IMG/VR virus record: IMGVR_UViG_3300034418_011550
Span: 1 to 64,000 of that record
Source: a virus
DNA length: 64,000 nucleotides
Strand: one strand, 5' to 3'
The notes beneath the pieces are model-generated. The model was not told the origin of the DNA and searched no databases. It saw only the letters and a program-made list of their open reading frames with translations. The number at the start of each line of letters is the position of its first letter. The first letter of the stretch is position 1. Positions 5,555 through 41,907 of this stretch are shown one piece after another. A program made the translations under genes and the position numbers.

Positions 5555-5556
5555 AG

Positions 5557-5587: not shown

Positions 5588-5598
5588 AAATGTTAAAT

Positions 5599-6985: not shown

Positions 6986-6991
6986 ATGATT

Positions 6992-7240: not shown

Positions 7241-7242
7241 TC

Positions 7243-7773: not shown

Positions 7774-7781
7774 TATTTATA
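7772..7781 (+). promoter_or_regulatory. Putative late promoter (AATATTTATA)
   Basis: taatatttataaccatgaa is identical to the 3528 site. Confidence 0.65.
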
Positions 7782-7784
7782 ACC

Positions 7785-8585: not shown

Positions 8586-8586
8586 C

Positions 8587-23359: not shown

Positions 23360-23384
23360 TTTTAAAAAATAAATAAATATGTGT

Positions 23385-23411
23385 GGGCTCCAAATTGGAG
23401 CCCTCTTTTTT
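23385..23411 (+). terminator. Rho-independent terminator
   Basis: GGGCTCC-aaatt-GGAGCCC then TCTTTTTT. Confidence 0.8.
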
Positions 23412-23421
23412 AATATTTATA
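23412..23421 (+). promoter_or_regulatory. Putative late promoter
   Basis: AATATTTATA 3 nt before ATG 23425. Confidence 0.65.
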
Positions 23422-23424
23422 ATC

Positions 23425-24573
23425 ATGGCAAACATTCCTATTTGGCCCGGCTCATCTTCATTTTTCCCAGGAGAAACACCTTTTGGGTTTTATGATAATG
23501 ACCCTGATTTTCAAACAGACGCTGATAAAGTAGCAAAATTTTGTGGTTTGCGTTTAGGTTACCCTATTGAAAACGTAGAATTACAAGATGTTAATTTTTA
23601 TACTGCTTTTGAACAAGCTGTCACAGTATACGGTAATGAACTATATGCTTTTAATGTTAGAGATAATTATTTATCTTTAGAAGGAGCATCAACTGGGTCC
23701 AATTTAAATAAATCCCTTATTACACCTAATTTAGAAGGTGTTATACGCATGTCCCAACAATATGCCTCCGAAGCAGGTACCGGAGGAAATTACAATTGGT
23801 ATAGCGGTTCAGTTACATTAACAGGAAGTATTCAAGATTATGATTTAGGAGCTTGGGCCACTGATAATAATATTTCAGGCGGTTTAGAAATTAAAAAAAT
23901 ATGGTATGAAGATGTACCTGCTGTTTCTGAACTATATAGTCCGTGGGCCGGTATATTACCGGGTGCTGCTAGCGCTGTAGGTTTAGTAGGTATTGCCGGA
24001 TATGGTCCTTCAACTAACTTCTTATTAATGCCTTTAAGTTATGATTTACAAAACATTCAGGCTATTGAAATGTCAAATCAAGTTAGATTATCTAACTACA
24101 CATTCCAATTAATTAATAATAAATTAAGAATATTCCCTATACCAGGTACAGGAGATGAAGGAACTAATTTGTGGTTTCAATATTCTATTATAGATGAAAA
24201 ATATGATGCTTCTATAACACCTACATCTAAAGTAAATAATGTATCAAATGTTCCTTATGGGAATCCAACATATGAACAAATAAATTCTGTAGGTAGAAGT
24301 TGGATTTTTGAATATACATTAGCCTTAGCTAAAGAAATGTTAGGGTATGTTAGAGGTAAATATGGAACTATACCTATTCCTGGAGCTGAAGTAACATTAA
24401 ACCAAAGTGATTTAATAGCTGCGGCAACTTCTGAAAAAGAAGCTTTAATCACTAGATTAAGAGATTACTTTGATTCAACTTCTCGTCAAGCATTACTTGA
24501 AAGAAGGGCAGCAGAATCAGCAGCTCGCGTTAATGAAATTAATCAGGTTCCAATGACAATTTTTATAGGATAA
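23425..24573 (+). CDS. Neck / head-tail adaptor protein (gp13-like)
   Basis: LGYPIENVEL, YTLALAKEMLGYVRGKY, VTLN; start moved to 23425 after terminator and promoter. Confidence 0.7.
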   Translation: MANIPIWPGSSSFFPGETPFGFYDNDPDFQTDADKVAKFCGLRLGYPIENVELQDVNFYTAFEQAVTVYGNELYAFNVRDNYLSLEGASTGSNLNKSLITPNLEGVIRMSQQYASEAGTGGNYNWYSGSVTLTGSIQDYDLGAWATDNNISGGLEIKKIWYEDVPAVSELYSPWAGILPGAASAVGLVGIAGYGPSTNFLLMPLSYDLQNIQAIEMSNQVRLSNYTFQLINNKLRIFPIPGTGDEGTNLWFQYSIIDEKYDASITPTSKVNNVSNVPYGNPTYEQINSVGRSWIFEYTLALAKEMLGYVRGKYGTIPIPGAEVTLNQSDLIAAATSEKEALITRLRDYFDSTSRQALLERRAAESAARVNEINQVPMTIFIG

Positions 24574-24574
24574 T

Positions 24575-25096
24575 ATGGCATTATTTGGTGAAAGTAGAGA
24601 TATAAGCATGTTCAGACACATTAACCGTGAGTTAATGCAAAACATTATCTCTGAACAAGTAGTATTCTATAAATATAACTTAACTAAAACCAATGTTAAT
24701 ATGTATGGTGAGGCAAGTGAAGGAAGATATTTCCAAGATCCTGTTTTACTATATGCTTTAGTTGAAAGATCCCCCCAATCAAATCCAGTAGATGAATTTG
24801 GTGTTCAGTTTGATTATGCTTTAATCTTTAGATTTTTAGTTGATGACTTAACTGATTTAAGTATATTCCCTGATGTTGGAGATGTGGTTATGTATTATGA
24901 AGGATATTGGGAAATAGATAGTATAAACTCTACACAGTTCTTTGTAGGTAAAAACCCAGCTTATCCTTATAATGACTCAACAGGAACAAACCCATTAGAA
25001 ACTGACTTAGGTTCTTTTGGTTATAATGTATCATCAATATGTTCAGCGCACTACGTACCAGCTGATCGCTTGAACATTGTTAAACAACGTTTATAA
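24575..25096 (+). CDS. Neck / head-closure protein (gp14-like)
   Basis: NMYGEA, DEFGVQ, PDVGDVV, YWEIDSI; synteny. Confidence 0.6.
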   Translation: MALFGESRDISMFRHINRELMQNIISEQVVFYKYNLTKTNVNMYGEASEGRYFQDPVLLYALVERSPQSNPVDEFGVQFDYALIFRFLVDDLTDLSIFPDVGDVVMYYEGYWEIDSINSTQFFVGKNPAYPYNDSTGTNPLETDLGSFGYNVSSICSAHYVPADRLNIVKQRL

Positions 25097-26046
25097 TGGC
25101 TGTAAAAGGAAGAAAACCAATACCAAAGACCCAAAGAGAAATAAGTAATTCTCTTATAACTCCTTATGATAAGGAAAATGGAAATCCTAATTTAGCCAAT
25201 CCTAATTTGGATAATGAAGTTAATAGATCACAACAGATTTCATTTAAAGGAGATACAACAAAACCATTTTCTGTTAGTATTCAAGACATAGATGAAGCTG
25301 TATTCTATTATCTTAGAGAAGTTATTAAACCTTTTGTTATACAAAACGGTGTTAGAATTCCTGTTCCTGTGATTTATGGTGCCCCTGAGAAATGGAAATC
25401 ATTTCAAAAAGACGGTTATTATAGAGACTTAAATGGAGAAATTATGGCTCCATTAATCATGTTTAAACGTACAGGAATTAATAAAAATAGAAGTATAGCT
25501 AATAAATTAGATGCTAACTTACCTTATAATTATGGTGTGTTTACTAAAGGTTACAATTCAAAAAATGCTTATGATAACTTTAATGTTTTAAATAATAGAA
25601 CACCTAACAAAGTTTATTATTCAGTTGTAGTTCCTGATTATGTAACAGTAAGCTATCAATTTGCTGTGTTTACATATTATGTAGAACAACAAAATAAAAT
25701 AGTTGAAGCCATTGAATACGCTTCAGACTCATATTGGGGTGACCCAGAACGCTTTAAATTTAAAGCTATGATAGATTCTTTTGGTTTCCAAACAGAATTA
25801 TCAGATAGTAATGAAAGAGTAGTACGTAGTACTTTCGATTTAAGCCTAAATGGCTATATTATACCAGACGTTATACAAAAAGACATGAACGCGCAAAAGA
25901 AATCATACGAAGCTTCTAAAATTATATTTTCAGTTGAAGCGACAAATAATGAAGGAATATTCCTTGGAGTAGAACAAGATGGACGTTTAGTCACACCTAC
26001 TGTTGGGGAAAAAGAAACTCAAAACAGATCTACATCCATCGGGTAA
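25096..26046 (+). CDS. Tail terminator / sheath stabiliser (gp15-like)
   Basis: VPVIYGAPEKW, PDYVTVSYQ; synteny after the neck genes. Confidence 0.6.
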   Translation: MAVKGRKPIPKTQREISNSLITPYDKENGNPNLANPNLDNEVNRSQQISFKGDTTKPFSVSIQDIDEAVFYYLREVIKPFVIQNGVRIPVPVIYGAPEKWKSFQKDGYYRDLNGEIMAPLIMFKRTGINKNRSIANKLDANLPYNYGVFTKGYNSKNAYDNFNVLNNRTPNKVYYSVVVPDYVTVSYQFAVFTYYVEQQNKIVEAIEYASDSYWGDPERFKFKAMIDSFGFQTELSDSNERVVRSTFDLSLNGYIIPDVIQKDMNAQKKSYEASKIIFSVEATNNEGIFLGVEQDGRLVTPTVGEKETQNRSTSIG

Positions 26047-26068: not shown

Positions 26069-29000
26069 ATGGCTAAAGTTAGATATCTTGATCAGGTACC
26101 CGTTGGTGTTTACAATACAGCTGGCTCCGGCGGTACTGGTGCTATTGATATATATTATACTGGCTCCTTAATAAAAGCTAGTGCTCCTTTTATCAATTTT
26201 ACCGGCTCAGCTGAAGCTTTCACAGAAGTAATATCTGGGACTGAAGGAGTAACAGTTTATATATCAGGTTCAGGAGTTGGATTTCCATTCTCAGGATCAG
26301 CAGTAATTACAGGTTCATTAGTAATTTCAGGTTCAGCAGAACCTATTATAATTCAAACATTACCATATGAAGCTAGTCCTTCATATGTTGTAACATATGT
26401 TCCTGCCTCAGGAGTATTAGAATATTCTGATATGCCATCAGATGGTACTTCAGGTTCAAGCGGCTCTTCAGGAACAAGCGGTAGCTCAGGTTCATCCGGC
26501 ACTTCAGGAAGTTCTGGTTCTAGTGGAACAAGTGGTTCTTCAGGAACATCAGGTTCTAGTGGAACATCTGGCTCAAGTGGTTCTAGTGGTACATCAGGTT
26601 CATCAGGCTCATCTGGTTCAAGTGGTACTAGCGGCTCATCAGGTTCATCTGGCACTTCAGGTAGTTCAGGTTCAAGTGGTTCAAGTGGAACAAGTGGTTC
26701 ATCTGGCTCTTCAGGTACTTCTGGTTCTTCAGGAACATCAGGTTCATCTGGCACTTCTGGTTCCTCAGGTACATCAGGCTCAAGTGGCACTTCAGGTTCA
26801 TCTGGAACCTCAGGTTCTTCAGGTTCATCAGGTACTAGTGGCTCTTCAGGTTCATCAGGTTCATCAGGTTCTAGTGGTTCAAGTGGAACTTCTGGTTCAT
26901 CTGGATCTAGTGGAACCTCAGGAAGCTCAGGCTCATCTGGCTCATCAGGCTCAAGTGGAACTAGTGGTAGTTCAGGCTCATCAGGAACCTCAGGTTCTTC
27001 AGGGTCTAGTGGAACATCAGGAGTTAGTGGTATATCAAGTGGATTAGTTTATTATTATGACGGACCAACAGCATCACAAACAGTTCCTATAACATCTTTA
27101 ATTACCGATGATTTAATTTTATTCCCTAATACAGGATCACAAACAACTATTTCAACAACAAGTTTTGATCCTGCGGATGGAGACACTGAAATAGTTCAAT
27201 ATGTTACTCCATCAGCATCTTTAGCTACAACAGTAATAGTTCCTGGGTTATGGGTAAATAATTTATTTGCACAAAGAACAGCTGGAACAGGTACTCTTGT
27301 TTATTGGATTGTTATTGATGAAATGCAATCTAATGGAACAACTCTTATTGCTAATATTGCATCAGGAAATGCTGGTTCGGGTACTCCTATTACTAATACC
27401 CAAAACAATTATATTTATTCTTTATATGTTCCTTCATATGTTTTAGCATCAGTTAACTCAAGAATTAGAGTTAGTGTTTACGCAAACACAACAGGTAATA
27501 ATACTGCGTTTGATATTGAAATGAGAGATAATACTCTCTCAAACATAGTAACAACATTAGCTGCTAATATAGCTGGAACTTCAGGAACAAGCGGTAGCTC
27601 AGGTTCATCTGGCACTTCAGGAAGTTCTGGTTCTAGTGGAACAAGCGGTTCTTCAGGTTCATCTGGTACTTCTGGGTCATCAGGATCTAGTGGTACTAGT
27701 GGCAGTTCAGGTTCTAGCGGAACAAGCGGTTCTTCTGGCTCTTCAGGAACTTCAGGTATAGATGGAACAAGCGGCTCATCAGGATCTAGTGGTACATCAG
27801 GTAGTTCAGGTTCTTCTGGAACTAGTGGCTCATCTGGTACTTCTGGTTCATCAGGTTCAAGCGGAACTTCAGGTTCATCTGGAAGTTCAGGTACTTCTGG
27901 CTCATCAGGTAGTTCAGGTACTTCAGGCTCATCAGGCACTTCAGGCTCATCAGGCACTTCAGGCTCATCTGGAAGTTCAGGTACATCTGGTTCATCAGGT
28001 TCATCAGGAACAAGCGGCTCATCAGGTAGTTCAGGTACTTCTGGCTCATCAGGTAGTTCAGGTACCTCTGGTTCATCAGGTACCTCTGGCTCATCAGGTA
28101 GTTCAGGTACTTCAGGTTCATCAGGTAGCTCTGGTTCTTCAGGTACCTCTGGTTCATCTGGTTCTAGTGGAACAAGCGGTTCATCTGGTACTAGTGGTAG
28201 TTCAGGTACTTCAGGTTCATCCGGTACTTCAGGTAGTTCTGGTTCTAGTGGAACTAGCGGTTCATCAGGCACTTCAGGTAGCTCTGGTTCTTCAGGCACT
28301 TCAGGCTCATCAGGTTCATCAGGTACAAGTGGCTCAAGTGGCAGCTCAGGTACTTCAGGTATAAGTGGTGTTAATGGAACTTCAGGTTCTAGCGGCACTT
28401 CAGGTTCTTCAGGAACCTCAGGCTCATCAGGCAGTTCAGGAACTAGTGGTTCTAGTGGTACTTCTGGTTCATCTGGATCAAGTGGCACCTCAGGTTCATC
28501 TGGAACTTCAGGTAGTTCAGGTTCATCAGGAACAAGTGGTTCAAGTGGTTCAAGTGGTTCTTCAGGAACTAGTGGCTCATCAGGCTCATCAGGTACAAGT
28601 GGCTCATCAGGCAGCTCAGGTACTTCAGGTATAAGTGGTGTAAATGGTACTAGCGGTTCTTCAGGAACCTCAGGTTCAAGTGGTACTTCAGGCAGCTCAG
28701 GTTCATCAGGAACATCAGGTGTTGACGGTACTTCTGGATCAAGTGGCACCTCAGGTTCATCTGGAAGTTCAGGAACTTCAGGTTCATCAGGAACAAGTGG
28801 TTCTTCAGGAACTTCAGGTTCAAGTGGTTCAAGCGGAACAAGTGGCTCAAGTGGTTCTTCTGGGACAAGTGGTTCATCAGGTACTTCAGGTTCATCAGGT
28901 ACCTCAGGCTCATCAGGCAGCAGTGGTACATCAGGTATAAGTGGAGTAAACGGAACTAGCGGCTCATCAGGATCAAGTGGAACATCAGGTTCTTCCGGTT

Positions 29001-32000
29001 CATCAGGAACATCTGGTTCTTCTGGAACATCTGGCTCAAGCGGAACTAGTGGTTCATCAGGTTCATCTGGCACTTCAGGTTCATCAGGTTCTAGTGGAAC
29101 TTCAGGTTCATCAGGTAGTTCAGGAACTAGTGGCTCAAGTGGAACAAGTGGTTCCTCAGGAACTAGCGGCTCATCAGGTTCATCAGGTACAAGCGGCTCA
29201 AGTGGCAGCTCAGGTACTTCAGGTATATCAGGTGTAAACGGTACATCTGGCTCAAGCGGAACAAGCGGTTCTTCAGGAACTAGCGGTTCATCAGGTTCTA
29301 GTGGTACTTCAGGAAGCTCTGGTTCTTCAGGAACTAGTGGTTCATCAGGTACTTCAGGCTCTTCAGGTTCATCAGGAACTAGTGGATCTAGTGGGACATC
29401 TGGTTCTTCAGGAACAAGTGGATCTTCTGGTTCATCAGGAACTAGCGGTAGTTCAGGTTCATCAGGAACTAGTGGTTCATCAGGCTCGTCAGGAACTAGT
29501 GGAATTTCAGGTATAAATGGTACTAGTGGTTCATCAGGAACTAGCGGTAGTTCAGGAACATCAGGTTCATCAGGTTCATCTGGAACAAGCGGTTCAAGCG
29601 GAAGTTCAGGTACATCTGGTTCATCAGGTACTTCAGGAAGTTCAGGTTCAAGTGGTTCATCAGGAACTAGCGGTTCATCAGGTTCATCAGGTACTAGCGG
29701 TTCTAGTGGAACTAGTGGTTCTTCAGGAACATCAGGTAGTTCCGGTTCATCAGGTACTTCAGGTTCATCTGGTTCCTCAGGTTCAAGTGGATCTTCAGGT
29801 TCATCTGGTTCAAGTGGTACATCAGGTAGCTCAGGTACTAGTGGTTCTTCTGGTTCATCAGGCACTTCAGGCTCATCGGGTTCAAGTGGAACTAGTGGTT
29901 CTTCAGGTTCAAGTGGCACTTCAGGTATAAGTGGTATAAATGGTACCTCTGGTTCATCAGGAACTAGTGGCTCATCAGGAACTTCTGGCTCAAGTGGTTC
30001 ATCAGGAACTAGCGGTAGTTCAGGTTCATCAGGAACTTCAGGAAGTTCAGGTACATCTGGTTCATCTGGTTCATCTGGTTCATCTGGTTCAAGCGGAACA
30101 AGCGGTTCTAGCGGTACTTCAGGATCAAGTGGTTCAAGCGGAACTTCAGGTTCATCTGGTTCTTCTGGTACAAGCGGAAGTAGTGGTACAAGTGGCTCGT
30201 CAGGAACAAGTGGAAGCTCAGGCTCATCAGGAAGTTCAGGTTCAAGCGGTTCATCAGGAACTTCAGGCTCGTCAGGAACAAGTGGAAGCTCAGGTACTTC
30301 AGGATCAAGTGGCTCATCAGGTACTAGTGGTTCATCAGGAAGCAGTGGTACTTCAGGTATAAGTGGTGTAAACGGAACTAGTGGTAGTTCTGGTTCATCA
30401 GGCACAAGCGGTAGTTCAGGTTCAAGTGGTTCAAGTGGAACAAGTGGTTCTTCTGGTTCTTCAGGTACTTCTGGTTCTTCAGGAACATCAGGTTCATCTG
30501 GCACTTCAGGCAGCTCAGGTTCAAGTGGTTCATCAGGAACAAGTGGCTCTTCAGGAAGCAGTGGTACTTCAGGGTCAAGTGGATCAAGCGGCACTTCAGG
30601 TAGTTCAGGTTCAAGTGGAACTAGCGGTTCATCAGGTAGTTCAGGCAGCTCAGGTAGTTCAGGTTCATCAGGAACAAGTGGTTCTTCTGGTTCATCAGGA
30701 ACAAGTGGTTCTTCAGGTTCATCAGGAACATCTGGCTCAAGTGGTTCATCAGGTAGCTCAGGCACTTCAGGTATAAGCGGTGTAAACGGAACTTCAGGTT
30801 CAAGTGGTTCAAGTGGAACAAGTGGTTCATCTGGCTCTTCAGGAACAAGTGGCTCTTCAGGTTCATCAGGAACTAGTGGCTCATCAGGTAGTTCTGGCTC
30901 ATCTGGTACTTCAGGTTCATCAGGTAGTTCAGGAACTAGTGGTTCATCTGGCACTAGTGGTTCATCAGGTTCTTCAGGAACTTCTGGCTCATCAGGCTCA
31001 TCTGGTTCATCTGGTACTTCAGGATCATCAGGTTCATCAGGTACTTCTGGTTCAAGTGGCTCATCAGGAACAAGTGGTTCTTCAGGTTCATCAGGAACTA
31101 GTGGTAGTTCAGGTTCAAGTGGTTCATCTGGCACATCTGGTAGTTCAGGGAGTTCAGGCACTTCAGGTTCAAGTGGCTCATCAGGAACTTCAGGTATATC
31201 AGGTGTAAATGGAACTAGCGGATCTTCAGGTTCATCAGGAACAAGTGGCTCAAGTGGTTCTAGTGGAACTAGTGGTTCATCAGGATCTAGTGGAACAAGC
31301 GGTAGTTCAGGTTCATCAGGAACTAGCGGCTCATCAGGTTCATCAGGAACATCAGGTAGTTCAGGTTCATCCGGAACAAGTGGTTCTTCAGGCACGTCTG
31401 GTTCTTCAGGAACTAGCGGTTCATCTGGAACATCTGGCTCATCAGGTTCATCAGGTACATCTGGCTCATCAGGTAGTTCTGGCTCATCTGGTACTTCAGG
31501 TTCATCAGGAACAAGTGGTTCATCAGGATCAAGCGGTACCTCAGGATCAAGTGGTTCATCAGGAACTAGCGGTTCTAGTGGCTCATCAGGTACATCCGGA
31601 AGCTCAGGCTCATCCGGCACATCAGGTATAAGCGGTGTTAATGGAACATCAGGTAGCTCAGGAACATCAGGTTCATCTGGTACTTCAGGTTCAAGCGGAA
31701 CTTCAGGTTCTTCAGGTTCATCTGGAACTAGTGGTAGCTCAGGTTCTTCAGGTACATCAGGTTCAAGTGGAACAAGTGGTTCAAGCGGAACAAGTGGTTC
31801 ATCTGGAAGTTCTGGAACAAGCGGTTCTTCTGGTTCAAGTGGAACATCAGGAAGTTCAGGTACATCAGGTTCTTCTGGTTCAAGCGGAACTTCAGGTTCA
31901 TCTGGCTCATCTGGAACTAGTGGTTCTTCTGGTTCAAGTGGTACTAGTGGTTCATCTGGAACAAGCGGTTCAAGTGGAACTTCAGGTTCAAGTGGTTCAT

Positions 32001-35000
32001 CAGGAACCAGTGGTAGTTCAGGTTCATCAGGAACTAGCGGCTCATCAGGTTCATCAGGAACATCAGGTAGTTCAGGTTCATCCGGAACAAGTGGTTCTTC
32101 AGGTTCATCAGGTACTAGTGGTTCATCTGGTTCATCTGGTTCAAGCGGAACTTCTGGTTCATCAGGTTCATCAGGTACTTCTGGTTCATCAGGAAGCAGT
32201 GGTACTTCAGGTATAAGCGGTGTTAATGGAACAAGTGGTTCAAGCGGTTCTTCAGGTTCATCAGGATCTTCAGGTACAAGCGGTTCATCAGGTTCAAGTG
32301 GCACAAGCGGTTCAAGTGGTAGTTCAGGTACAAGCGGTTCATCAGGTTCATCAGGGTCCTCAGGTACAAGTGGTTCATCCGGCTCATCAGGAACATCAGG
32401 TTCTTCAGGAACATCTGGTAGTTCAGGTTCTTCAGGAACTAGTGGTTCATCTGGCTCATCTGGCTCATCAGGTACTAGTGGCTCATCAGGCTCATCTGGT
32501 ACTTCAGGTTCTTCAGGCACTAGTGGTTCAAGTGGTTCATCAGGTACATCAGGTAGTTCTGGCAGCTCAGGAACTTCTGGCTCATCAGGCTCATCTGGAA
32601 CTTCTGGCTCATCAGGTAGCAGTGGTACTTCAGGTATAAGCGGTGTAAACGGAACTTCTGGTTCATCAGGTTCATCAGGAACTTCAGGTTCATCAGGGTC
32701 CTCAGGTACAAGTGGTTCATCTGGTTCTTCAGGCACCTCTGGTTCTTCTGGCTCATCTGGAACTTCTGGTTCATCAGGATCTAGTGGTACTAGCGGTTCA
32801 AGTGGTTCTTCAGGAACTAGTGGTTCATCTGGTTCATCTGGTTCAAGTGGTACATCAGGTTCTTCAGGTTCTTCAGGTACAAGTGGATCAAGTGGAACCT
32901 CAGGCAGCTCAGGTTCATCAGGAACTTCAGGATCATCAGGCAGTTCAGGTTCAAGTGGAACAAGCGGAAGTTCAGGATCTTCAGGTACTTCAGGTTCATC
33001 TGGCTCATCTGGATCAAGTGGAACTTCAGGTTCATCAGGATCTTCAGGTACAAGTGGCTCATCAGGAACTAGTGGAAGTTCAGGTTCATCAGGTACTTCT
33101 GGTTCTAGTGGTTCTAGCGGCTCAAGCGGAACAAGTGGTTCAAGCGGTAGTTCAGGTACCTCAGGCTCATCTGGTTCTTCAGGTACATCAGGTATAAGTG
33201 GTGTTAATGGAACTAGCGGTTCATCTGGATCAAGTGGAACATCAGGTTCAAGTGGTTCATCAGGAACAAGTGGTTCAAGTGGTTCTTCTGGGACAAGTGG
33301 TTCAAGCGGAACATCAGGTAGCTCAGGTTCTTCAGGTACAAGTGGATCAAGTGGAACCTCAGGCAGCTCAGGTTCATCAGGAACTTCAGGATCATCAGGC
33401 AGTTCAGGTTCAAGTGGAACAAGCGGAAGTTCAGGTACTTCAGGAAGTTCTGGTTCTTCAGGTACAAGCGGTTCATCTGGTACTTCAGGTTCAAGTGGAA
33501 CTAGTGGTTCATCTGGTTCATCAGGATCATCTGGTTCTTCAGGAACTTCTGGCTCTTCAGGAACTAGTGGTTCATCAGGAACATCAGGTTCAAGTGGTTC
33601 ATCAGGTACATCAGGCAGCTCAGGTAGCTCAGGTACATCAGGCATATCAGGTGTAAATGGAACAAGCGGTTCATCAGGAACTTCAGGTTCTAGTGGTTCA
33701 TCAGGAACAAGCGGTTCATCAGGAACTTCAGGTTCATCTGGAACAAGTGGTAGTTCAGGTTCAAGTGGAACATCAGGCAGCTCAGGTTCAAGCGGAACTA
33801 GTGGTTCAAGCGGTTCATCAGGCACTTCAGGTTCATCTGGATCTAGTGGAACAAGTGGTTCAAGTGGTACTTCAGGTTCATCAGGCACTTCAGGTTCATC
33901 TGGTTCATCAGGTACTAGTGGTTCAAGCGGTTCATCAGGAACAAGCGGTTCAAGCGGTACTTCAGGTAGTTCAGGTACTTCAGGATCATCTGGCTCAAGT
34001 GGTACTTCAGGTTCATCTGGTTCAAGCGGAACTAGTGGTTCATCAGGTTCATCAGGTACTTCAGGATCTTCAGGATCTTCAGGTACTTCAGGTATAAGTG
34101 GTGTTAATGGTACTTCTGGTTCCTCAGGAACTAGCGGTTCATCAGGCACTTCAGGTTCAAGTGGTTCATCAGGAACTAGTGGATCAAGTGGTTCTAGCGG
34201 GACAAGTGGTTCAAGCGGTTCATCTGGAACATCAGGTTCTTCTGGTTCCTCAGGAACTAGTGGCTCAAGCGGTACTAGTGGAAGCTCAGGCTCATCAGGA
34301 ACATCTGGTAGTTCTGGTAGTTCAGGTACTAGTGGTAGTTCTGGTACTTCAGGTTCAAGCGGAACTAGTGGTTCATCAGGTTCATCAGGAACTTCTGGCT
34401 CATCTGGTTCATCAGGAATATCAGGAAGTTCAGGAACATCTGGCTCAAGCGGCTCATCAGGAACTAGTGGTTCTTCAGGTTCAAGTGGAACTAGTGGTTC
34501 TAGTGGAACTTCAGGTTCTTCAGGAACAAGTGGTTCTAGTGGCACTTCAGGTTCAAGTGGCTCATCAGGAACTTCTGGATCAAGCGGTTCATCAGGTACA
34601 TCAGGCTCAAGTGGCTCAAGTGGTTCAAGTGGTACTTCAGGAAGCTCAGGTTCAAGCGGAACAAGCGGCTCATCAGGAACTAGTGGTTCATCTGGCTCAA
34701 GTGGAACATCAGGTTCATCAGGAACAAGCGGCTCATCAGGAACAAGTGGAAGCTCTGGAACATCAGGTTCTAGTGGCTCATCAGGTACAAGTGGCTCATC
34801 AGGTAGCTCAGGTACCTCAGGTATATCAGGTGTAAATGGTACTTCAGGTTCTTCAGGAACTAGCGGAAGTTCAGGAACATCTGGCTCATCAGGCTCATCT
34901 GGTACTTCAGGTTCAAGTGGTTCATCAGGAACTAGTGGAAGCTCAGGTACTTCAGGTTCTTCAGGTACATCAGGCTCTTCTGGAACATCAGGTTCTAGTG

Positions 35001-37738
35001 GAAGTAGTGGTACTAGTGGTTCTTCAGGTTCATCAGGTACTTCAGGTTCTTCAGGTACATCAGGCTCTTCTGGAACATCAGGTTCTAGTGGAAGTAGTGG
35101 TACTAGTGGTTCTTCAGGTTCATCAGGTACTTCAGGATCATCAGGTACATCAGGCTCATCTGGAACTTCAGGTAGTAGTGGTTCATCTGGTACTTCAGGT
35201 TCAAGCGGTTCTTCAGGAACTAGTGGAAGTTCAGGTACTTCAGGTTCATCAGGAACTTCTGGTTCATCAGGTTCATCAGGAACTTCTGGTTCATCAGGTT
35301 CATCAGGAACTAGTGGATCAAGTGGTTCATCTGGTACCTCTGGTTCAAGTGGAACAAGTGGTTCATCAGGTTCATCAGGTACAAGCGGCTCATCAGGTAG
35401 CAGTGGTACTTCAGGTATAAGTGGAGTTAACGGAACTTCAGGTTCTAGTGGTACTTCAGGCTCATCAGGAACATCAGGTTCATCTGGATCAAGTGGCACT
35501 TCAGGTTCATCAGGTTCATCTGGAACCTCAGGTTCTAGTGGTACTTCTGGCTCATCAGGAACCTCAGGTTCAAGTGGAAGTTCAGGAACATCTGGTTCAT
35601 CTGGATCAAGTGGCACTTCAGGTAGCTCAGGTTCAAGTGGTTCTTCAGGTTCATCTGGAACTAGTGGCTCAAGTGGAACTAGTGGTTCATCAGGAACAAG
35701 TGGATCTTCAGGTTCAAGTGGGACAAGTGGCTCATCCGGTTCTTCAGGTACTTCTGGAAGTTCAGGAACATCTGGTTCAAGTGGTTCATCAGGTACTTCA
35801 GGTTCATCAGGTAGCTCAGGTTCATCTGGAACTTCAGGCTCATCAGGTACTTCAGGTTCTTCAGGAACTAGTGGTTCATCTGGTTCAAGTGGTACCTCAG
35901 GTAGCTCAGGTTCATCAGGAACCTCAGGTTCATCTGGAACAAGTGGTTCAAGTGGAACTTCAGGCTCATCAGGCTCATCAGGTACAAGCGGCTCAAGTGG
36001 TAGCTCAGGTACTTCAGGTATATCAGGTGTAAATGGAACAAGCGGTTCATCAGGAACTAGTGGAAGTTCAGGTACATCTGGTTCATCAGGTTCTTCAGGT
36101 ACAAGTGGTTCATCAGGTTCATCAGGAACTAGTGGCTCATCTGGTACTTCAGGTTCATCAGGAACTAGCGGTAGTTCAGGAACATCAGGTTCTTCAGGTT
36201 CAAGTGGTACTTCAGGTAGCTCAGGCTCAAGCGGAACTAGTGGTTCCTCTGGTTCAAGTGGTACCTCAGGTTCTTCTGGATCTAGTGGAACTAGTGGTTC
36301 AAGTGGTTCATCAGGAACAAGCGGTTCTTCAGGTTCTAGCGGCACATCAGGTTCAAGTGGTTCCTCTGGAACAAGCGGTTCATCAGGTTCAAGCGGAACC
36401 TCCGGCTCATCTGGAACTTCAGGTTCATCAGGTACTTCTGGTTCAAGTGGTACTTCAGGCTCATCAGGCTCATCGGGTACTTCAGGTAGTTCAGGATCAA
36501 GTGGAACCAGTGGCTCTTCAGGAACTAGTGGTAGCTCAGGCTCTTCAGGAACTTCAGGTAGCTCAGGTTCATCTGGAACTTCAGGCTCATCTGGAACTTC
36601 AGGATCAAGTGGAACTTCAGGTTCATCTGGTTCATCAGGTACAAGTGGTTCAAGTGGTTCATCAGGAACGTCAGGTTCATCTGGTTCTTCTGGAACTTCT
36701 GGATCAAGCGGAACATCAGGCTCATCCGGTACAAGCGGCTCAAGTGGTAGCTCAGGTACTTCAGGTATAAGTGGAGTTAATGGAACATCAGGTTCTTCAG
36801 GAACTAGTGGTTCAAGTGGTACTTCAGGAAGCTCAGGTTCAAGCGGAACAAGCGGCTCATCAGGAACTAGTGGTTCATCTGGCTCAAGTGGAACAAGTGG
36901 TACAACTACTATAACTAATAACATAGATGATCGTGTATTAACAGCTACAGGTACAGCTACTATTAATGGTGAATCTAATCTAACATTTGATGGTAGTACA
37001 TTAGGAGTAATAGGCACAGTCGGAATCGGTACAGATAGTCCACTGTATCAACTCCATGTATCAAGTAGTACTGCTGCTTTAGGAGTATATGAAAGAGCAG
37101 GAGGAGCTGCCTTATATTTAGAAGGTCAGTTAACTCGAGGTGTATTAGGTACTGTAAGTACACATCCATTACTAATTGCATACAATAGTGTTGAAGTAGC
37201 AAGATTTACAGGAACATCATTTGATGTAACTGGATCTTTAAATGTAGGAACTGGAACTGATATAAACTTAATTGGAGGAGGAAATTTAGAAACCAACGGA
37301 GGAAATGTAAATACAACTGGAGGAAGTATTAACATCGGAGGAGGAGCTGTAAACGGTACAACCCCAGGATCTTCAGTCAATGTTGATGTTATTAATGCCA
37401 ATATTAAAAACTTTGATATTACTCATCCATCTAAAGGCGAACCTCATAGATTAAGATACTCAGTACTTGAAGGTCCAGAAATTGGTGTATATGTTAGAGG
37501 TAGATTAACTAATAACAATATAATTGAATTACCATATTATTGGGTTGACTTAGTACATGAAGATTCTATAACAGTAACTTTAACACCAATTGGTAAACAT
37601 CAAAACCTATATGTAATATCTGCAAACCCAGAAAAAGTGGTAGTAGGAATTGAAGAAGGAACAATTGATTGTTACTATGTAATATATGGAGAAAGAAAAG
37701 ATGTAGACAAATTAACAATTGAATACATTAAAGAATAA
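26069..37738 (+). CDS. Giant Gly-Ser/Thr-Ser repeat fibre protein (3,889 aa)
   Basis: N-terminal virion module, two Gly-X-Y blocks, an internal beta domain, beta-stranded C-region and terminal IKNFDITHP...LEGPE...YGERKD intramolecular-chaperone-like domain. Confidence 0.8.
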   Translation: MAKVRYLDQVPVGVYNTAGSGGTGAIDIYYTGSLIKASAPFINFTGSAEAFTEVISGTEGVTVYISGSGVGFPFSGSAVITGSLVISGSAEPIIIQTLPYEASPSYVVTYVPASGVLEYSDMPSDGTSGSSGSSGTSGSSGSSGTSGSSGSSGTSGSSGTSGSSGTSGSSGSSGTSGSSGSSGSSGTSGSSGSSGTSGSSGSSGSSGTSGSSGSSGTSGSSGTSGSSGTSGSSGTSGSSGTSGSSGTSGSSGSSGTSGSSGSSGSSGSSGSSGTSGSSGSSGTSGSSGSSGSSGSSGTSGSSGSSGTSGSSGSSGTSGVSGISSGLVYYYDGPTASQTVPITSLITDDLILFPNTGSQTTISTTSFDPADGDTEIVQYVTPSASLATTVIVPGLWVNNLFAQRTAGTGTLVYWIVIDEMQSNGTTLIANIASGNAGSGTPITNTQNNYIYSLYVPSYVLASVNSRIRVSVYANTTGNNTAFDIEMRDNTLSNIVTTLAANIAGTSGTSGSSGSSGTSGSSGSSGTSGSSGSSGTSGSSGSSGTSGSSGSSGTSGSSGSSGTSGIDGTSGSSGSSGTSGSSGSSGTSGSSGTSGSSGSSGTSGSSGSSGTSGSSGSSGTSGSSGTSGSSGTSGSSGSSGTSGSSGSSGTSGSSGSSGTSGSSGSSGTSGSSGTSGSSGSSGTSGSSGSSGSSGTSGSSGSSGTSGSSGTSGSSGTSGSSGTSGSSGSSGTSGSSGTSGSSGSSGTSGSSGSSGTSGSSGSSGTSGISGVNGTSGSSGTSGSSGTSGSSGSSGTSGSSGTSGSSGSSGTSGSSGTSGSSGSSGTSGSSGSSGSSGTSGSSGSSGTSGSSGSSGTSGISGVNGTSGSSGTSGSSGTSGSSGSSGTSGVDGTSGSSGTSGSSGSSGTSGSSGTSGSSGTSGSSGSSGTSGSSGSSGTSGSSGTSGSSGTSGSSGSSGTSGISGVNGTSGSSGSSGTSGSSGSSGTSGSSGTSGSSGTSGSSGSSGTSGSSGSSGTSGSSGSSGTSGSSGTSGSSGTSGSSGSSGTSGSSGSSGTSGISGVNGTSGSSGTSGSSGTSGSSGSSGTSGSSGSSGTSGSSGTSGSSGSSGTSGSSGTSGSSGTSGSSGSSGTSGSSGSSGTSGSSGSSGTSGISGINGTSGSSGTSGSSGTSGSSGSSGTSGSSGSSGTSGSSGTSGSSGSSGSSGTSGSSGSSGTSGSSGTSGSSGTSGSSGSSGTSGSSGSSGSSGSSGSSGSSGTSGSSGTSGSSGSSGTSGSSGSSGTSGSSGSSGTSGISGINGTSGSSGTSGSSGTSGSSGSSGTSGSSGSSGTSGSSGTSGSSGSSGSSGSSGTSGSSGTSGSSGSSGTSGSSGSSGTSGSSGTSGSSGTSGSSGSSGSSGSSGSSGTSGSSGTSGSSGTSGSSGSSGTSGSSGSSGTSGISGVNGTSGSSGSSGTSGSSGSSGSSGTSGSSGSSGTSGSSGTSGSSGTSGSSGSSGSSGTSGSSGSSGTSGSSGSSGTSGSSGSSGTSGSSGSSGSSGSSGSSGTSGSSGSSGTSGSSGSSGTSGSSGSSGSSGTSGISGVNGTSGSSGSSGTSGSSGSSGTSGSSGSSGTSGSSGSSGSSGTSGSSGSSGTSGSSGTSGSSGSSGTSGSSGSSGSSGTSGSSGSSGTSGSSGSSGTSGSSGSSGTSGSSGSSGSSGTSGSSGSSGTSGSSGSSGTSGISGVNGTSGSSGSSGTSGSSGSSGTSGSSGSSGTSGSSGSSGTSGSSGSSGTSGSSGSSGTSGSSGTSGSSGTSGSSGTSGSSGSSGTSGSSGSSGSSGTSGSSGTSGSSGSSGTSGSSGSSGTSGSSGSSGTSGSSGSSGTSGISGVNGTSGSSGTSGSSGTSGSSGTSGSSGSSGTSGSSGSSGTSGSSGTSGSSGTSGSSGSSGTSGSSGSSGTSGSSGTSGSSGSSGTSGSSGSSGTSGSSGSSGTSGSSGTSGSSGTSGSSGSSGTSGSSGSSGTSGSSGSSGTSGSSGSSGTSGSSGSSGTSGSSGSSGSSGTSGSSGSSGTSGSSGSSGTSGISGVNGTSGSSGSSGSSGSSGTSGSSGSSGTSGSSGSSGTSGSSGSSGSSGTSGSSGSSGTSGSSGTSGSSGSSGTSGSSGSSGSSGTSGSSGSSGTSGSSGTSGSSGSSGTSGSSGSSGTSGSSGSSGTSGSSGSSGTSGISGVNGTSGSSGSSGTSGSSGSSGTSGSSGSSGTSGSSGSSGTSGSSGSSGTSGSSGSSGTSGSSGSSGSSGTSGSSGSSGTSGSSGTSGSSGSSGTSGSSGSSGSSGTSGSSGSSGTSGSSGSSGSSGTSGSSGSSGTSGSSGTSGSSGSSGTSGSSGSSGSSGTSGSSGSSGTSGSSGSSGTSGISGVNGTSGSSGSSGTSGSSGSSGTSGSSGSSGTSGSSGTSGSSGSSGTSGSSGTSGSSGSSGTSGSSGSSGSSGTSGSSGTSGSSGSSGTSGSSGTSGSSGTSGSSGSSGSSGSSGTSGSSGTSGSSGTSGSSGSSGTSGSSGSSGTSGISGVNGTSGSSGTSGSSGSSGTSGSSGTSGSSGTSGSSGSSGTSGSSGSSGTSGSSGSSGTSGSSGSSGTSGSSGTSGSSGTSGSSGSSGTSGSSGSSGTSGSSGTSGSSGTSGSSGSSGTSGSSGSSGTSGSSGSSGTSGSSGSSGTSGISGVNGTSGSSGTSGSSGTSGSSGSSGTSGSSGSSGTSGSSGSSGTSGSSGSSGTSGSSGTSGSSGSSGTSGSSGSSGTSGSSGTSGSSGTSGSSGSSGTSGSSGSSGISGSSGTSGSSGSSGTSGSSGSSGTSGSSGTSGSSGTSGSSGTSGSSGSSGTSGSSGSSGTSGSSGSSGSSGTSGSSGSSGTSGSSGTSGSSGSSGTSGSSGTSGSSGTSGSSGTSGSSGSSGTSGSSGSSGTSGISGVNGTSGSSGTSGSSGTSGSSGSSGTSGSSGSSGTSGSSGTSGSSGTSGSSGTSGSSGSSGTSGSSGSSGTSGSSGTSGSSGTSGSSGSSGTSGSSGSSGTSGSSGTSGSSGTSGSSGSSGTSGSSGSSGTSGSSGTSGSSGTSGSSGSSGTSGSSGSSGTSGSSGSSGTSGSSGTSGSSGSSGTSGSSGSSGTSGISGVNGTSGSSGTSGSSGTSGSSGSSGTSGSSGSSGTSGSSGTSGSSGTSGSSGSSGTSGSSGSSGTSGSSGSSGSSGSSGTSGSSGTSGSSGTSGSSGSSGTSGSSGSSGTSGSSGTSGSSGSSGTSGSSGSSGSSGTSGSSGTSGSSGTSGSSGSSGTSGSSGSSGTSGSSGTSGSSGTSGSSGSSGTSGSSGSSGTSGISGVNGTSGSSGTSGSSGTSGSSGSSGTSGSSGSSGTSGSSGTSGSSGTSGSSGTSGSSGSSGTSGSSGSSGTSGSSGSSGTSGSSGSSGTSGSSGSSGTSGSSGSSGTSGSSGSSGTSGSSGSSGTSGSSGTSGSSGTSGSSGTSGSSGSSGTSGSSGSSGTSGSSGTSGSSGSSGTSGSSGSSGTSGSSGTSGSSGTSGSSGSSGTSGSSGSSGTSGSSGSSGTSGSSGTSGSSGTSGSSGSSGTSGISGVNGTSGSSGTSGSSGTSGSSGSSGTSGSSGTSGSSGSSGTSGTTTITNNIDDRVLTATGTATINGESNLTFDGSTLGVIGTVGIGTDSPLYQLHVSSSTAALGVYERAGGAALYLEGQLTRGVLGTVSTHPLLIAYNSVEVARFTGTSFDVTGSLNVGTGTDINLIGGGNLETNGGNVNTTGGSINIGGGAVNGTTPGSSVNVDVINANIKNFDITHPSKGEPHRLRYSVLEGPEIGVYVRGRLTNNNIIELPYYWVDLVHEDSITVTLTPIGKHQNLYVISANPEKVVVGIEEGTIDCYYVIYGERKDVDKLTIEYIKE
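26444..27037 (+). repeat. Gly-X-Y block 1 (66 GSS/GTS triplets)
   Basis: 594 nt of degenerate 9-nt units. Confidence 0.9.
27575..36907 (+). repeat. Gly-X-Y block 2 (about 1,036 GSS/GTS triplets, punctuated by GISG(V/I)NGT)
   Basis: Gly codons at 27575 and 36899 are 9,324 nt (1,036 x 9) apart and all punctuation marks fall in register. Confidence 0.9.
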
Positions 37739-37750: not shown

Positions 37751-40390
37751 ATGGCTAAAAACGTCCAAATAATACCAGCATCAGGAACTGTAGATTTTCA
37801 AGATGGAACTCAATCAGTTATCCTGACAATGAAAAAATCAGGAGCTGTAGCTACAGGTATTGATATTTCTGTAAATGGTAGTGCTCCTGTGAGTATTCAA
37901 GGTACTCAAGGCACTACAGGTACTCAAGGTACTACTGGTCCTCAAGGTACAACAGGTACACAAGGAACAACAGGTACTCAAGGTATTCAAGGACGTCAAG
38001 GTGTAACAGGTCCACAAGGTACTACAGGTACCCAAGGTACTACAGGTACTCAAGGAGCAACCGGAACTCAAGGCACTACTGGTACTCAAGGCACTACTGG
38101 TACTCAAGGTACTACAGGCGCGCAAGGTATACAAGGTATAACAGGTAACACAGGTCCTACTGGTCCAACAGGCCCACAAGGTACAACAGGTGCTACAGGT
38201 TCACAAGGTACTACAGGCGCGCAAGGTATACAAGGTATAACAGGTAACACAGGTCCTACTGGTCCAACAGGCCCACAAGGTACAACAGGTACACAAGGTA
38301 CTTTAGGTCCTGTAGGTCCACAAGGAGCAATAGGTGCTCAAGGTATTCAAGGTGTTATAGGTCCTGTAGGAGCAACAGGTCCACAAGGAACAACCGGGGG
38401 AACAGGTCCAACAGGTCCTCAAGGCACTACTGGTACTCAAGGAACTATAGGTGCTCAAGGTATCCAAGGACGTCAAGGTATAACAGGTAACACTGGAGGA
38501 ACAGGTCCAACAGGTCCTCAAGGTACAACCGGGGGAACAGGTCCAACAGGTCCTCAAGGCACTACTGGTACTCAAGGAACTATAGGTGCTCAAGGTATAC
38601 AAGGTAGACAAGGTATAACAGGTAATACAGGCCCAATAGGACCAGATGGTCCTACAGGTCCTACAGGTTCACAAGGTACTACAGGCGCACAAGGTATACA
38701 AGGTATAACAGGTAACACAGGCGGAACAGGCCCAACTGGTCCAACAGGTCCAACTGGTCCAACTGGTCCACAAGGTACAACAGGTGCTCAAGGTATACAA
38801 GGTAGACAAGGTATAACAGGTAACACAGGCGGAACAGGTCCAACAGGTCCTCAAGGTACTTTAGGTCCTATAGGTCCTCAAGGAGCTATTGGTGCTCAAG
38901 GTATTCAAGGTATTATAGGTCCTGTAGGAGCTACTGGACCACAAGGAACAACAGGTGGAACAGGTCCAACAGGTCCTCAAGGCACTACTGGTACTCAAGG
39001 AACTACAGGTGCTCAAGGTATACAAGGACGTCAAGGTATAACAGGTAACACTGGAGGAACAGGTCCAACAGGTCCTCAAGGTACGACCGGGGGAACAGGT
39101 CCAACAGGTCCAACAGGTCCTCAAGGTACAACAGGTACCCAAGGAGCTATTGGTGCTCAAGGTATACAAGGTCGTCAAGGAATAACAGGTAATATAGGCC
39201 CAATAGGACCAGACGGTCCTACAGGCCCTACAGGCCCAACAGGCCCACAAGGAACAACTGGTGGAACAGGTGCTCAAGGTATACAAGGTAGACAAGGTAT
39301 AACAGGTAACACTGGAGGAACAGGCCCAACAGGTCCTCAAGGAACAACTGGAGGTACTGGAGGAACAGGTCCAACAGGTGCTCAAGGTATACAAGGTATA
39401 ACAGGTAACACTGGAGGAACAGGTCCAACAGGTCCTCAAGGAACAACTGGAGGTACTGGAGGAACAGGTCCAACAGGCCCACAAGGAACAACTGGAGGTA
39501 CTGGAGGAACAGGCCCAACAGGTGCTCAAGGTATACAAGGTATAACAGGTAACACTGGAGGAACAGGACCAACTGGTCCACAAGGAACAACAGGTGGAAC
39601 AGGAGGTACAGGACCAACTGGTCCACAAGGTACTATCGGAGCACAAGGTATTCAAGGACGTCAAGGTATAACAGGAGACCAAGGAAACCCAGGTGTCCCT
39701 GGAACTCAAGGTACTACTGGAGCAACAGGTACTCAAGGAACTACCGGTGCTCAAGGTATCCAAGGACGTCAAGGTATAACTGGTGGAACAGGAGGAACAG
39801 GTCCACAAGGCACAGCGGGTAGTAATGGAAGCACAGGTCCAACAGGTCCACAAGGTACAACAGGCGGAACAGGAGGAACAGGTCCAACAGGCCCACAAGG
39901 AACAACTGGTGGAACAGGAGGAACAGGTCCACAAGGTGCAGCAGGTAGTAATGGAAGCACAGGTCCAACAGGCCCACAAGGTACAACTGGTGGGTTTACT
40001 ACAAACTCAAACGCTCAAATTAACTCATTAGGTGTTAATACAACTGCTCCAGGTATTGCTGGAGAAATTAGAGCAACAGGTAACATTATAGCATTCTACT
40101 CAGATGCTAGATTAAAAACTAATGTTGAAAAAATTGAATCAGCTTTAGAATTAATTTCTAAACTTAGAGGTGTAAGATACAATTGGACTGAAGAAGCTGA
40201 AGCAATGGCCCCTTCAAGAGCTGGTAAAACAGAAATTGGAGTTATTGCTCAAGAAGTTGAAAAAGTACTTCCTGAAATAGTAGTTGATTGGGATGAATAT
40301 AAGACAGTAGTTTATGATAGATTAACAGCATTGTTGATTGAAGCTGTTAAAGAATTAATAGATGAAGTAAACCAATTAAAAAATAAATAA
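37751..40390 (+). CDS. Collagen-like tail fibre with C-terminal S74 intramolecular chaperone
   Basis: About 232 Gly-X-Y triplets; [10 protein letters not shown]...[14 protein letters not shown]...LLIEAVKEL. Confidence 0.88.
37901..39991 (+). repeat. Collagen Gly-X-Y repeat ([18 protein letters not shown])
   Basis: In-register Gly codons from 37901 to 39989; internal block duplications. Confidence 0.9.
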
Positions 40391-41325: not shown

Positions 41326-41907
41326 ATGTACTCTAGACCTATATTTGATCCTAATTTAGAAATTGATCAAACAAACTACTACTGGTTCGAAAATGGATTC
41401 TCTTCAGATGAAGCAGATGAAATCTTAAAACTTACAAAAGACTATGAATTTGAACAAGCTACTATTATATCTGGCAATACATCAGATATAAGAAATAGTA
41501 ATATCAAATGGATAGCACCAAGTGAAAATTCTTCTTGGATTTATGACCGTTTAATGGGTTGTATTAAAGAAGCTAATAGTGTTTGGAAATTTAATCTTTA
41601 TTCTGTTTTAGATGATATTCAATATACAGAATATAGAGGCGGTGGTGGACATTATAACTGGCATATAGATATCGGCCCAGGTTCAATTTCCCATCGTAAA
41701 GTATCAGTTATTGTACAACTTTCTGATCCTTCAGAATATACTGGAGGTGTTTTAGAAATTAGTTCAGGCAGTAACACCCAAAAAGTTTCAAATAAAAAAG
41801 GAGCAGTTATTGTTTTCCCTTCATTTTTACAACACAGAATAACCCCTGTAGCCTCAGGTTTAAGAAAAAGCTTAGTATTATGGGCTGGTGGAGAACACTA
41901 TAAGTAA
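41326..41907 (+). CDS. 2OG-Fe(II) oxygenase (prolyl-hydroxylase / PKHD-like)
   Basis: WHID (HxD), RKVSVIVQL, GGVL, FPSFLQHRITPV, R-x-S (RKSLV). Confidence 0.88.
   Translation: MYSRPIFDPNLEIDQTNYYWFENGFSSDEADEILKLTKDYEFEQATIISGNTSDIRNSNIKWIAPSENSSWIYDRLMGCIKEANSVWKFNLYSVLDDIQYTEYRGGGGHYNWHIDIGPGSISHRKVSVIVQLSDPSEYTGGVLEISSGSNTQKVSNKKGAVIVFPSFLQHRITPVASGLRKSLVLWAGGEHYK

Follow-up and report, generated by a model that had tools for sequence, protein, structure and literature searches.

The window analysed here, a stretch of 64,000 nt of viral DNA (IMG/VR record IMGVR_UViG_3300034418_011550, positions 1 to 64,000), contains a gene for a protein of 3,889 amino acids (aa), hereafter the giant fibre, most of which consists of Gly-(Ser/Thr)-Ser triplets in unbroken register. 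The favoured reading, to which approximately even chances are given, is that this protein forms a trimeric, Ser-O-glycosylated fibre of the collagen type, approximately 0.9 micrometres long and with a distal binding tip. This reading draws on the conservation of the triplet register at the protein level, on genes of similar size in related phage contigs, and on the genomic linkage between such fibres and a serine-O-glycosyltransferase-type gene of the TibC family.

Composition and age of the repeat

A preliminary description of this DNA, made from the letters alone, had reported about 1,036 in-register Gly-(Ser/Thr)-Ser triplets, and a register scan counted 1,037 in the main block (block B), which is preceded by a shorter block A (Table 1). 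Gly was kept at 1,103 of the 1,103 expected positions, in perfect register within both blocks. The triplets of block B comprise 619 GSS, 376 GTS, 20 GIS, 17 GVN, 2 GIN and one each of GID, GVD and GTT, and its 3,111 residues are made up of S 1634, G 1037, T 378, I 23, N 19, V 18 and D 2. The same count bears out that the block is Pro-free, almost uncharged and dominated by Gly, Ser and Thr, as there is no Pro, Lys, Arg or Glu in any of these residues and the two Asp constitute the only charge. Across blocks A and B together, the Y position is Ser in 1,081 triplets and the X position is Ser (661), Thr (399), Ile (24) or Val (19), and nothing else. Thr triplets are almost never neighbours (lag-1 autocorrelation -0.5 to -0.6), and the real repeating units are thus GTS-GSS and GTS-GSS-GSS. 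When 600-aa pieces of block B were compared with PF01391 (Collagen), they scored 287-288 bits relative to a cut-off of 27.2, a score that rests mainly on Gly periodicity.

The triplet pattern greatly exceeds what chance would give, and it does not come down to a simple repeat at the DNA level. Gly codons in the two blocks are divided between GGT (619), GGA (305), GGC (168) and GGG (11), Ser at Y is encoded by both the TCN and AGY families with a usage near that of other window genes, and adjacent repeat DNA units are only 60-80% identical. Because the codons have drifted and the DNA units have diverged while the Gly/Ser pattern was kept, the repeat is taken to be old and held by selection at the protein level, i.e. 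by purifying selection on a period-3 protein pattern rather than through recent DNA expansion. An open reading frame (ORF) on the minus strand of the repeat (27478..37017, 3,179 aa) was considered as a gene and rejected as a shadow of the repeat, since the plus-strand frame alone connects an N-terminal and a C-terminal domain with homologues.

Length of the gene and its relatives

The length of the gene is very likely real, and inflation by assembly unlikely, judging from the sequence of the repeat and from its relatives. The longest exact repeat within the repeat DNA is 113 bp, 89% of its 31-mers and all of its 127-mers are unique, and the 11.7-kb frame stays open until it closes with a conserved domain, in a gene that is tightly packed among late structural genes. 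The survey of lengths in relatives that the preliminary description had proposed found 1,045-1,249 triplets, with the Gly register unbroken, in four other assemblies (Table 1), whose repeat DNA is only 68-72% identical to that of the window. Shorter family members of 212-792 triplets also exist, some of them with other Pro-free triplets (GTN, GTT, GIQ/GTQ). The degenerate repeat DNA and the four assemblies of similar size together argue against misassembly as the source of the length. That the gene is an artefact of assembly or a dead, unexpressed frame is considered highly improbable: most public homologues of its N-terminal domain do end at contig edges, so that assemblers often fail here, and one contig (L010) carries a 1-nt frameshift, but in addition to the unique 127-mers, the conserved ending of the open frame and the tight packing, the codon usage matches that of the genome, and in the four other assemblies the gene codes for 3,464-4,182 aa or stays open over at least 3,487 aa.

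The frameshifted contig L010 and its counterpart L011 derive from sister samples (3300007542 and 3300007541, respectively) and are near-identical. The giant gene is intact in L011, and in L010 is split into frames of 2,019 and 1,621 aa by a shift located between about 5600 and 6060, which could reflect variation in the population or a fault of assembly.

Two of the relatives combine features of both fibre types of the window. The G006 gene encodes the window-type N-terminal domain, a single 1,249-triplet run and a C-terminal Peptidase_S74 domain (55 bits), and looks like a fusion of the two fibre types that are adjacent in the window. In L012, approximately 1,070 GSS/GTS triplets pass in register into GxQ triplets of the neighbouring-fibre type, a mosaic shaft that suggests recombination between two fibre genes. 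By major capsid protein, the nearest cultured phage is Flavobacterium phage immuto (57% identical), followed by Microcystis phage Mel-JY01 (47%); a DNA search of the flanks against phage records gave no match. The fibres of immuto (587 aa) and of its orthologue in L008 (488 aa) occupy the same genomic position and are homologous over the C-terminal ~240 aa, and have no Gly-X-Y shaft, so the shaft is a variable-length insertion, with the virion end on one side and the conserved distal end on the other. Mel-JY01 (PP395634.1) contains an unannotated plus-strand frame (L081:2-3049) that codes for 1,016 aa or more and includes 202 triplets of the GTS/GSS type; it is open at the record start and is followed closely by the gene for a structural protein.

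The Mel-JY01 record itself annotates two minus-strand 'hypothetical proteins' (1-651 and 739-2298) over this plus-strand fibre-like frame, and these annotated ORFs are likely shadow frames. No paper on Mel-JY01 was found in a literature search.

Linkage to a serine glycosyltransferase gene

A gene 11 kb downstream of the giant fibre encodes a GT4 domain fused to a TibC-type domain. The latter matches TIGR04414 with 214.1 bits over profile positions 10-369 of 374, above the equivalog cut-off of 200, and matches TibC itself (4RAP) by phmmer with an E of 5e-35. The catalytic Asp is kept, with SIGDTIAW aligning to GTLGDLLGW (TibC D110), as are the iron-finger Cys, with C713, C716, C732 and C744 lying opposite C339, C342, C358 and C370 of TibC (TibC residue numbers from PMC4358343). 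TibC heptosylates Ser, not Thr, of repetitive adhesins (PMC4358343).

TibC-like genes are rare in phages, being present in 4 of 50,697 catalogued records, namely Mel-JY01 and three uncultured huge phages of 636-735 kb (LR756501, LR756503 and LR756504). A TibC-type gene and a G-(S/T)-x fibre occur together in the window, the L011 contig (L023), G004, G006, G001, L005, L007 and L017; G002 also pairs such a fibre with a TibC-type gene, but one that falls below the cut-off. Wherever a relative's contig extends far enough, the two are found together, on either strand and between less than 0.1 kb and some 12 kb apart, and in Mel-JY01 the GTS/GSS frame lies 1.7 kb upstream of an FkbM-TibC fusion. The complete immuto genome has neither a TibC-type gene nor any long Gly-X-Y run. 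Among 53 viral contigs with a TibC-like gene, S/T-rich Gly-X-Y runs were found at 7 loci within 10-kb flanks; many of these contigs are short, and in close relatives the flanks end before the fibre, extension beyond them in G004 and G006 having recovered giant fibre genes. Across the paired contigs named above, the enzyme-fibre linkage has survived rearrangement.

Conformation of the shaft

Under the favoured reading, three chains would form a parallel homotrimer in which the 1,103 G-(S/T)-S triplets make up one continuous collagen-type helix, whose length at 0.286 nm per residue would come to approximately 0.9-1.07 micrometres across the window and its relatives. A trimer is suggested by the S74 end in G006, the in-register GxQ triplets in L012, the Bd2133-like stalk and the receptor-binding-type tip (see below), Peptidase_S74 being known for the trimerisation of fibres. 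The fibre would be anchored on the virion by its N-terminal 125 aa, with the neck and the baseplate both possible sites; the gene is located beside neck genes. Its C-terminal ~275 aa would fold into a short stalk of the beta-fibre type and a lectin-like tip for binding to the host surface. O-glycosylation is proposed because the shaft lacks the usual stabilisers (Pro/Hydroxyproline (Hyp) and salt bridges): the phage GT4/TibC-type enzyme would modify shaft Ser in the cytoplasm, and other enzymes of the same gene block may tailor the glycan. Ac-(Gly-Pro-Thr)10, a peptide, remains a random coil unless its Thr is galactosylated, and glycosylated Thr has been proposed as an alternative to Hyp in bacterial and viral collagens (PMC11923368). 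As this peptide needs sugar to fold, the near-invariant Ser at Y is a natural candidate acceptor, and by analogy glycosylation could reconcile the strict Gly register with the missing stabilisers, the sugars stabilising and stiffening the helix as glycosylated Thr would in other Pro-poor collagens. The resulting thread might widen the capture radius in dilute water, the particle being roughly a quarter of the thread length, and a capture role would fit the lectin-like fibre-tip fold modelled at the distal end. A glycan-stabilised helix was one of the alternatives in the preliminary description, and it gains tangible support from the serine-O-glycosyltransferase-type gene that lies in the adjacent enzyme block here and is linked to such fibres in relatives.

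Several points weigh against this reading. Pro/Hyp and KGE/KGD-type salt bridges are stabilisers across known collagens (PMC11923368), and Pro/Hyp and Lys-Gly-Glu/Asp salt bridges are absent from the shaft. The sequence (GSS)n serves as a flexible synthetic linker in protein engineering, so that the unmodified chain should be disordered, and the strict triplet pattern could instead be an acceptor motif for the glycosyltransferase. Known TibC substrates are beta-helical autotransporter passengers, not Gly-X-Y chains. The cases of linkage represent one broad phage lineage with shared ancestry rather than independent events. Finally, no ADP-heptose genes (gmhA, rfaE domain II) were found in G004, G006, G001 or Mel-JY01, so any heptose donor would be host-made.

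The main rival, appreciably less probable and nonetheless a serious contender, is a glycosylated tether without a helix, i.e. a mucin-like bottle-brush with dense O-glycosylation, whose chains are connected through their globular ends alone and which sterics and hydration keep extended, acting as a flexible leash, coat or gel adhesive. The Ser/Thr-rich, Pro-free and uncharged composition, the missing collagen stabilisers and the linker-like behaviour of (GSS)n would all suit a brush, and the glycosyltransferase linkage applies to it equally. A brush, however, needs no Gly at every third residue, yet 0 of 1,103 Gly have changed despite saturated synonymous drift, the same constancy extends over 1,045-1,249 triplets in four relatives, and the shafts of relatives continue in register into canonical collagen triplets (L012) and an S74 chaperone (G006). 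It is unlikely, in turn, that the shaft is a collagen-type helix without glycans, stabilised by Ser/Thr hydration networks, by its length and by its end domains, with a host glycan, the second fibre or some other virion protein as the target of the enzymes. The Pfam Collagen scores far over the cut-off, the missing ADP-heptose genes and the stabilisation of bacterial collagens that has been credited to polar residues and hydration networks (PMC8968730) are in keeping with such a helix, but TibC-type enzymes are Ser-specific whereas the neighbouring fibre is Thr/Gln/Pro-rich with little Ser, G006 retains the enzyme though its only nearby Gly-X-Y fibre is of the GSS type, and (Gly-Pro-Thr)10 is unfolded without its sugar. 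A polyglycine-II bundle or other compact fold, for example an ice-binding surface like that of snow-flea antifreeze protein, had also been raised in the preliminary description and is now given almost no weight. Gly-X-X periodicity and small side chains are hallmarks of polyglycine-II bundle proteins too, but these bundles need short helices of about 10 residues joined by turns, whereas the 3,111 residues here are unbroken and show no helix-turn periodicity, the sole periodic feature recurs every 90-250 residues, and the flanking domains are of fibre type.

Regularly spaced marks in block B

That periodic feature consists of 19 GISG(V/I)NG marks, which in the favoured reading would be hydrophobic clamps for register or nucleation in an otherwise degenerate repeat. 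Successive marks are separated by 30, 34, 32, 31, 47, 48, 46, 47, 48, 65, 47, 62, 50, 50, 81, 66, 67 and 83 triplets in the window, by 33-36, 52, 68-71 and 88-89 triplets in L011, and by 18, 35, 52, 70, 88 and 97 triplets in G006. The spacing widens from the N- to the C-terminus (Spearman rho 0.90-0.99 in 4 of 5 proteins) and is quantised, with multiples of 16.2-17.5 triplets fitting better than the first percentile of random spacings. One idea is that the marks keep register or renucleate a helix zipping from the C-terminus; another is that they record block duplications.

Domains at the ends and within the shaft

The preliminary description had placed globular domains around the repeat, which holds for residues 1-125, 324-502 and 3614-3889, together with a fibre-type chaperone at the C-terminus, which Pfam does not support. 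Pfam gave no match at E<=1 for the N-terminal, middle and C-terminal domains. Peptidase_S74 was considered for the C-terminus and rejected, as PF13884 was not found at E<=1 on residues 3613-3889 and the domain is instead on the next gene.

The N-terminal domain had no Pfam or PHROG match, none in phage records and none among proteins of 2,138-6,806 aa, and its leads in the ESM Atlas, T4 gp9/10 N-terminal and PTL_trimer, were weak ones below 0.9, with no family assigned. It is common to 59 protein clusters, many of which continue into collagen repeats and most of which are cut at contig ends; it is 72% identical in L010/L011 and also heads the 4,182-aa relative G006. The mid-domain is 65-82% identical in four relatives (L004-L007) and is missing from L011 and G006, whose shafts are continuous; it had no PDB relative by profile search, and its AF2 model is mostly beta and of low confidence (pLDDT 57).

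The C-terminal region shares homology with the C-terminus of immuto's 'tail fiber-like' protein, and its stalk matches by profile the trimeric Bdellovibrio Bd2133 fibre (8OND, E 5e-5). The terminal module is represented by 3,944 cluster representatives at E<=1e-3. Of those among the top 150 hits that match it (proteins of 139-2,104 aa), all except one carry it at most ~35 residues from the C-terminus, and the residues K-x-F-x-I-x-H-P, LEGPE-G-Y-RG, P-x-x-W and ER are invariant in it. The AF2 model of the module has block-mean pLDDT values of 76-98, mostly above 90. Foldseek of the C-terminal model against PDB gave nothing at E<=1e-3, and VIA-align ranked the tailspike of cyanophage Pam1, with its C-terminal domain, first for the module (Z 8.2, root-mean-square deviation 1.9, 66 aa). 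H-type lectins and the AP22 gp53 and R-type pyocin fibre tips came next (Z 5.4-6.3), and the Z of 8.2 borders on the background stated for the tool. On these models, the module reads as a fibre-tip-like beta sandwich and no more.

Comparison with known systems

The closest architecture is that of the collagen-like phage fibres with S74 (PF01391 plus PF13884), of which the next gene in the window is an example: these likewise have a Gly-X-Y shaft between a virion end and a distal end, lie in phage structural gene clusters, and are matched exactly in architecture by the G006 relative. Relative to the neighbouring fibre (about 232 triplets), the giant shaft is 4-5 times longer, lacks Pro, Gln and charge, is limited to mainly S/T at X and S at Y, and ends in a different module from S74. 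Collagen repeats poor in or free of Hyp are also found in BclA of the Bacillus anthracis exosporium and in Riftia cuticle collagen, whose hydroxy amino acids carry O-glycans thought to stabilise the helix (PMC11923368, PMC8968730). Those repeats have Pro at X and Thr at Y, whereas the giant fibre is Pro-free with Ser at Y, and its putative glycosylation would involve a transferase of another family, the bacterial autotransporter heptosyltransferases (BAHT).

Within the BAHT family, TibC/AAH with TibA/AIDA-I (PMC4358343) resemble the window in the TIGR04414 match, the catalytic Asp and four iron-finger Cys, and in a gene near a very Ser-rich repetitive surface protein, the family being one that hyper-glycosylates Ser. 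The window enzyme differs in being phage-encoded and fused to GT4, it would presumably act on a Gly-X-Y chain and not on a beta-helix passenger, and there is no autotransporter. Serine-rich repeat glycoproteins and mucins share thousands of Ser/Thr in short repeats, nearby glycosyltransferases and extended threads, but lack the strict Gly at every third residue and the phage fibre flanks. The immuto (vB_FspM_immuto) fibre and its L008 orthologue agree in their position between neck and sheath genes as well as at the C-terminus; in contrast to the giant fibre, that of immuto has a different N-terminus (M-P-S-W-K-K-V-I type) as well as no shaft, in a genome without a TibC-type gene.

Novelty and implications

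Each of three components is already known: phage fibres of the collagen-like kind, bacterial collagens that are glycosylated, and BAHT enzymes. A literature search found no description of natural (GSS)n collagen-like phage fibres or of a phage BAHT, nor of the combination of fibre, glycosylation and BAHT, the Pro- and charge-free G-(S/T)-S chemistry, the conserved length of ~0.9-1.07 micrometres or the graded punctuation. There is a fair chance, though well below even, that the window encodes a self-contained phage route to a Pro-free, uncharged (G-S/T-S)n triple helix of approximately 1 micrometre, stabilised by BAHT Ser-O-glycans and held by GISGVNG clamps at quantised, widening (~17-triplet) intervals, which would amount to a third principle of triple-helix stabilisation and to the longest known virion appendage relative to particle size. 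If the favoured reading holds, open-water tailed phages would carry threads ~4x their own length, changing models of encounter rate and host capture, and a Pro-free, charge-free triple helix achieved via serine glycans would be new collagen biophysics with a use in designed biomaterials. BAHT enzymes, so far known from pathogen autotransporter adhesins, would gain a second natural substrate class, and phages would be using them to glycosylate their own virions. The graded, quantised marks offer a natural experiment on register-keeping in very long degenerate repeats, and Microcystis phage Mel-JY01, as a cultured carrier, makes these ideas testable.

Genomic context

The window includes genes for a T4-type large terminase, portal, major capsid protein, PhoH, gp13-like neck protein, tail sheath and tail tube, and the phage is assigned to the T4-superfamily aquatic myoviruses; the giant gene sits among these structural genes, in agreement with its preliminary description as a structural fibre gene of a phage. 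A Bacteroidota host would be compatible with the low GC and the A-rich, Shine-Dalgarno-less starts. The order is neck gene, two small conserved genes, giant fibre, collagen/S74 fibre, enzyme block, then sheath and tube. G006 shares the order gp13-like protein, 173 aa, 316 aa and giant fibre, and immuto shares part of it (window 23383-26046). The 173-aa and 316-aa proteins are candidate docking partners of the giant fibre; the gene at 25096..26046 had no PDB relative. Apart from the GT4/TibC-type gene, the enzyme block consists of the oxygenase, a radical SAM/SPASM enzyme, FkbM methyltransferases and a number of ORFs without assignment, which are conserved behind the fibres in L009-L011 and L017.

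Table 1. Positions of the giant fibre, its parts and neighbouring genes in the window, and giant fibres of related contigs
Feature	Position	Strand	Size and basis
Giant fibre gene (P0001)	26069..37738	+	3,889 aa; ORF; 22-nt and 12-nt gaps to flanking + strand structural genes
N-terminal domain, residues 1-125, presumed virion-attachment end	26069..26443	+	conservation in relatives
Gly-X-Y block A, residues 126-323	26444..27037	+	66 triplets; register scan; Pfam Collagen 106.9 bits
Globular mid-domain, residues 324-502, inserted in shaft	27038..27574	+	conserved in relatives
Gly-X-Y block B, residues 503-3613	27575..36907	+	1,037 uninterrupted triplets; register scan; Pfam Collagen
Span of the 19 GISG(V/I)NG marks within block B	28358..36784	+	flanks invariant: GSSGTSGSSGSSGTS-GISGVNG-TSGSSG
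C-terminal region, residues 3614-3889 (putative beta-fibre stalk and terminal module)	36908..37735	+	phrog_17490, phrog_28536
Terminal beta-sandwich module (modelled)	37406..37735	+	~110 aa; K-x-F-x-I-x-H-P ... LEGPE-GVY-RG ... LP-YW ... ER-D
T4 gp13-like neck protein	23383..24573	+	three genes upstream of fibre; phmmer vs gp13 structures E 1.4e-5; phrog_211 adaptor
Second fibre (P0002), Pro/Thr/Gln collagen and Peptidase_S74	37751..40390	+	879 aa; Pfam Collagen 264 bits, Peptidase_S74 67 bits
2-oxoglutarate (2OG)-Fe(II) oxygenase	41326..41907	+	PF13640 56 bits; after fibres in L009-L011
Radical SAM / SPASM-like enzyme	44113..44958	+	PF04055 28.5 bits (just under cut-off), PF13186 22.1 bits; 90% identical in L010/L011
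GT4 (~96-380) fused to TibC/Aah-type protein O-heptosyltransferase domain (~405-755)	47716..49995	+	profile and alignment
FkbM-family methyltransferase	49992..50651	+	PF05050 34.9 bits, TIGR01444 39.6 bits
Giant fibre of L011			3,484 aa; 1,053 triplets
Giant fibre of L012 (open frame)	2-10462		at least 3,487 aa; at least 1,098 triplets
Giant fibre of G004 (176-kb contig rated 100% complete)			3,464 aa; 1,045 triplets
Giant fibre of G006 (IMG/VR 3300025687_000056)	L080:2643-15191	-	4,182 aa; 1,249 triplets in one run

The 2OG-Fe(II) oxygenase gene follows the collagen/S74 fibre, which has Pro at X, and is 77-87% conserved in relatives; its product may hydroxylate that fibre. Many plus-strand start codons in the window are preceded at 10-36 nt by the plus-strand motif TATTTATA (minus-strand form TATAAATA), with sites at 3531, 7774, 10831, 12753, 14786, 19211, 21611, 51504, 53612, 55253 and 57890. 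The motif has 24 matches in the window versus 10 expected, a number reached in 0 of 100 shuffles, and a related element rich in AT, TAATATTTATTATAAATAA, adjoins the giant gene's ATG. They may function in late transcription, as promoters, or in translation initiation. Between the capsid gene and PhoH, the region 19247-20910 encodes two enzymes of conserved unnamed phage families (phrog_12759 and phrog_12670).

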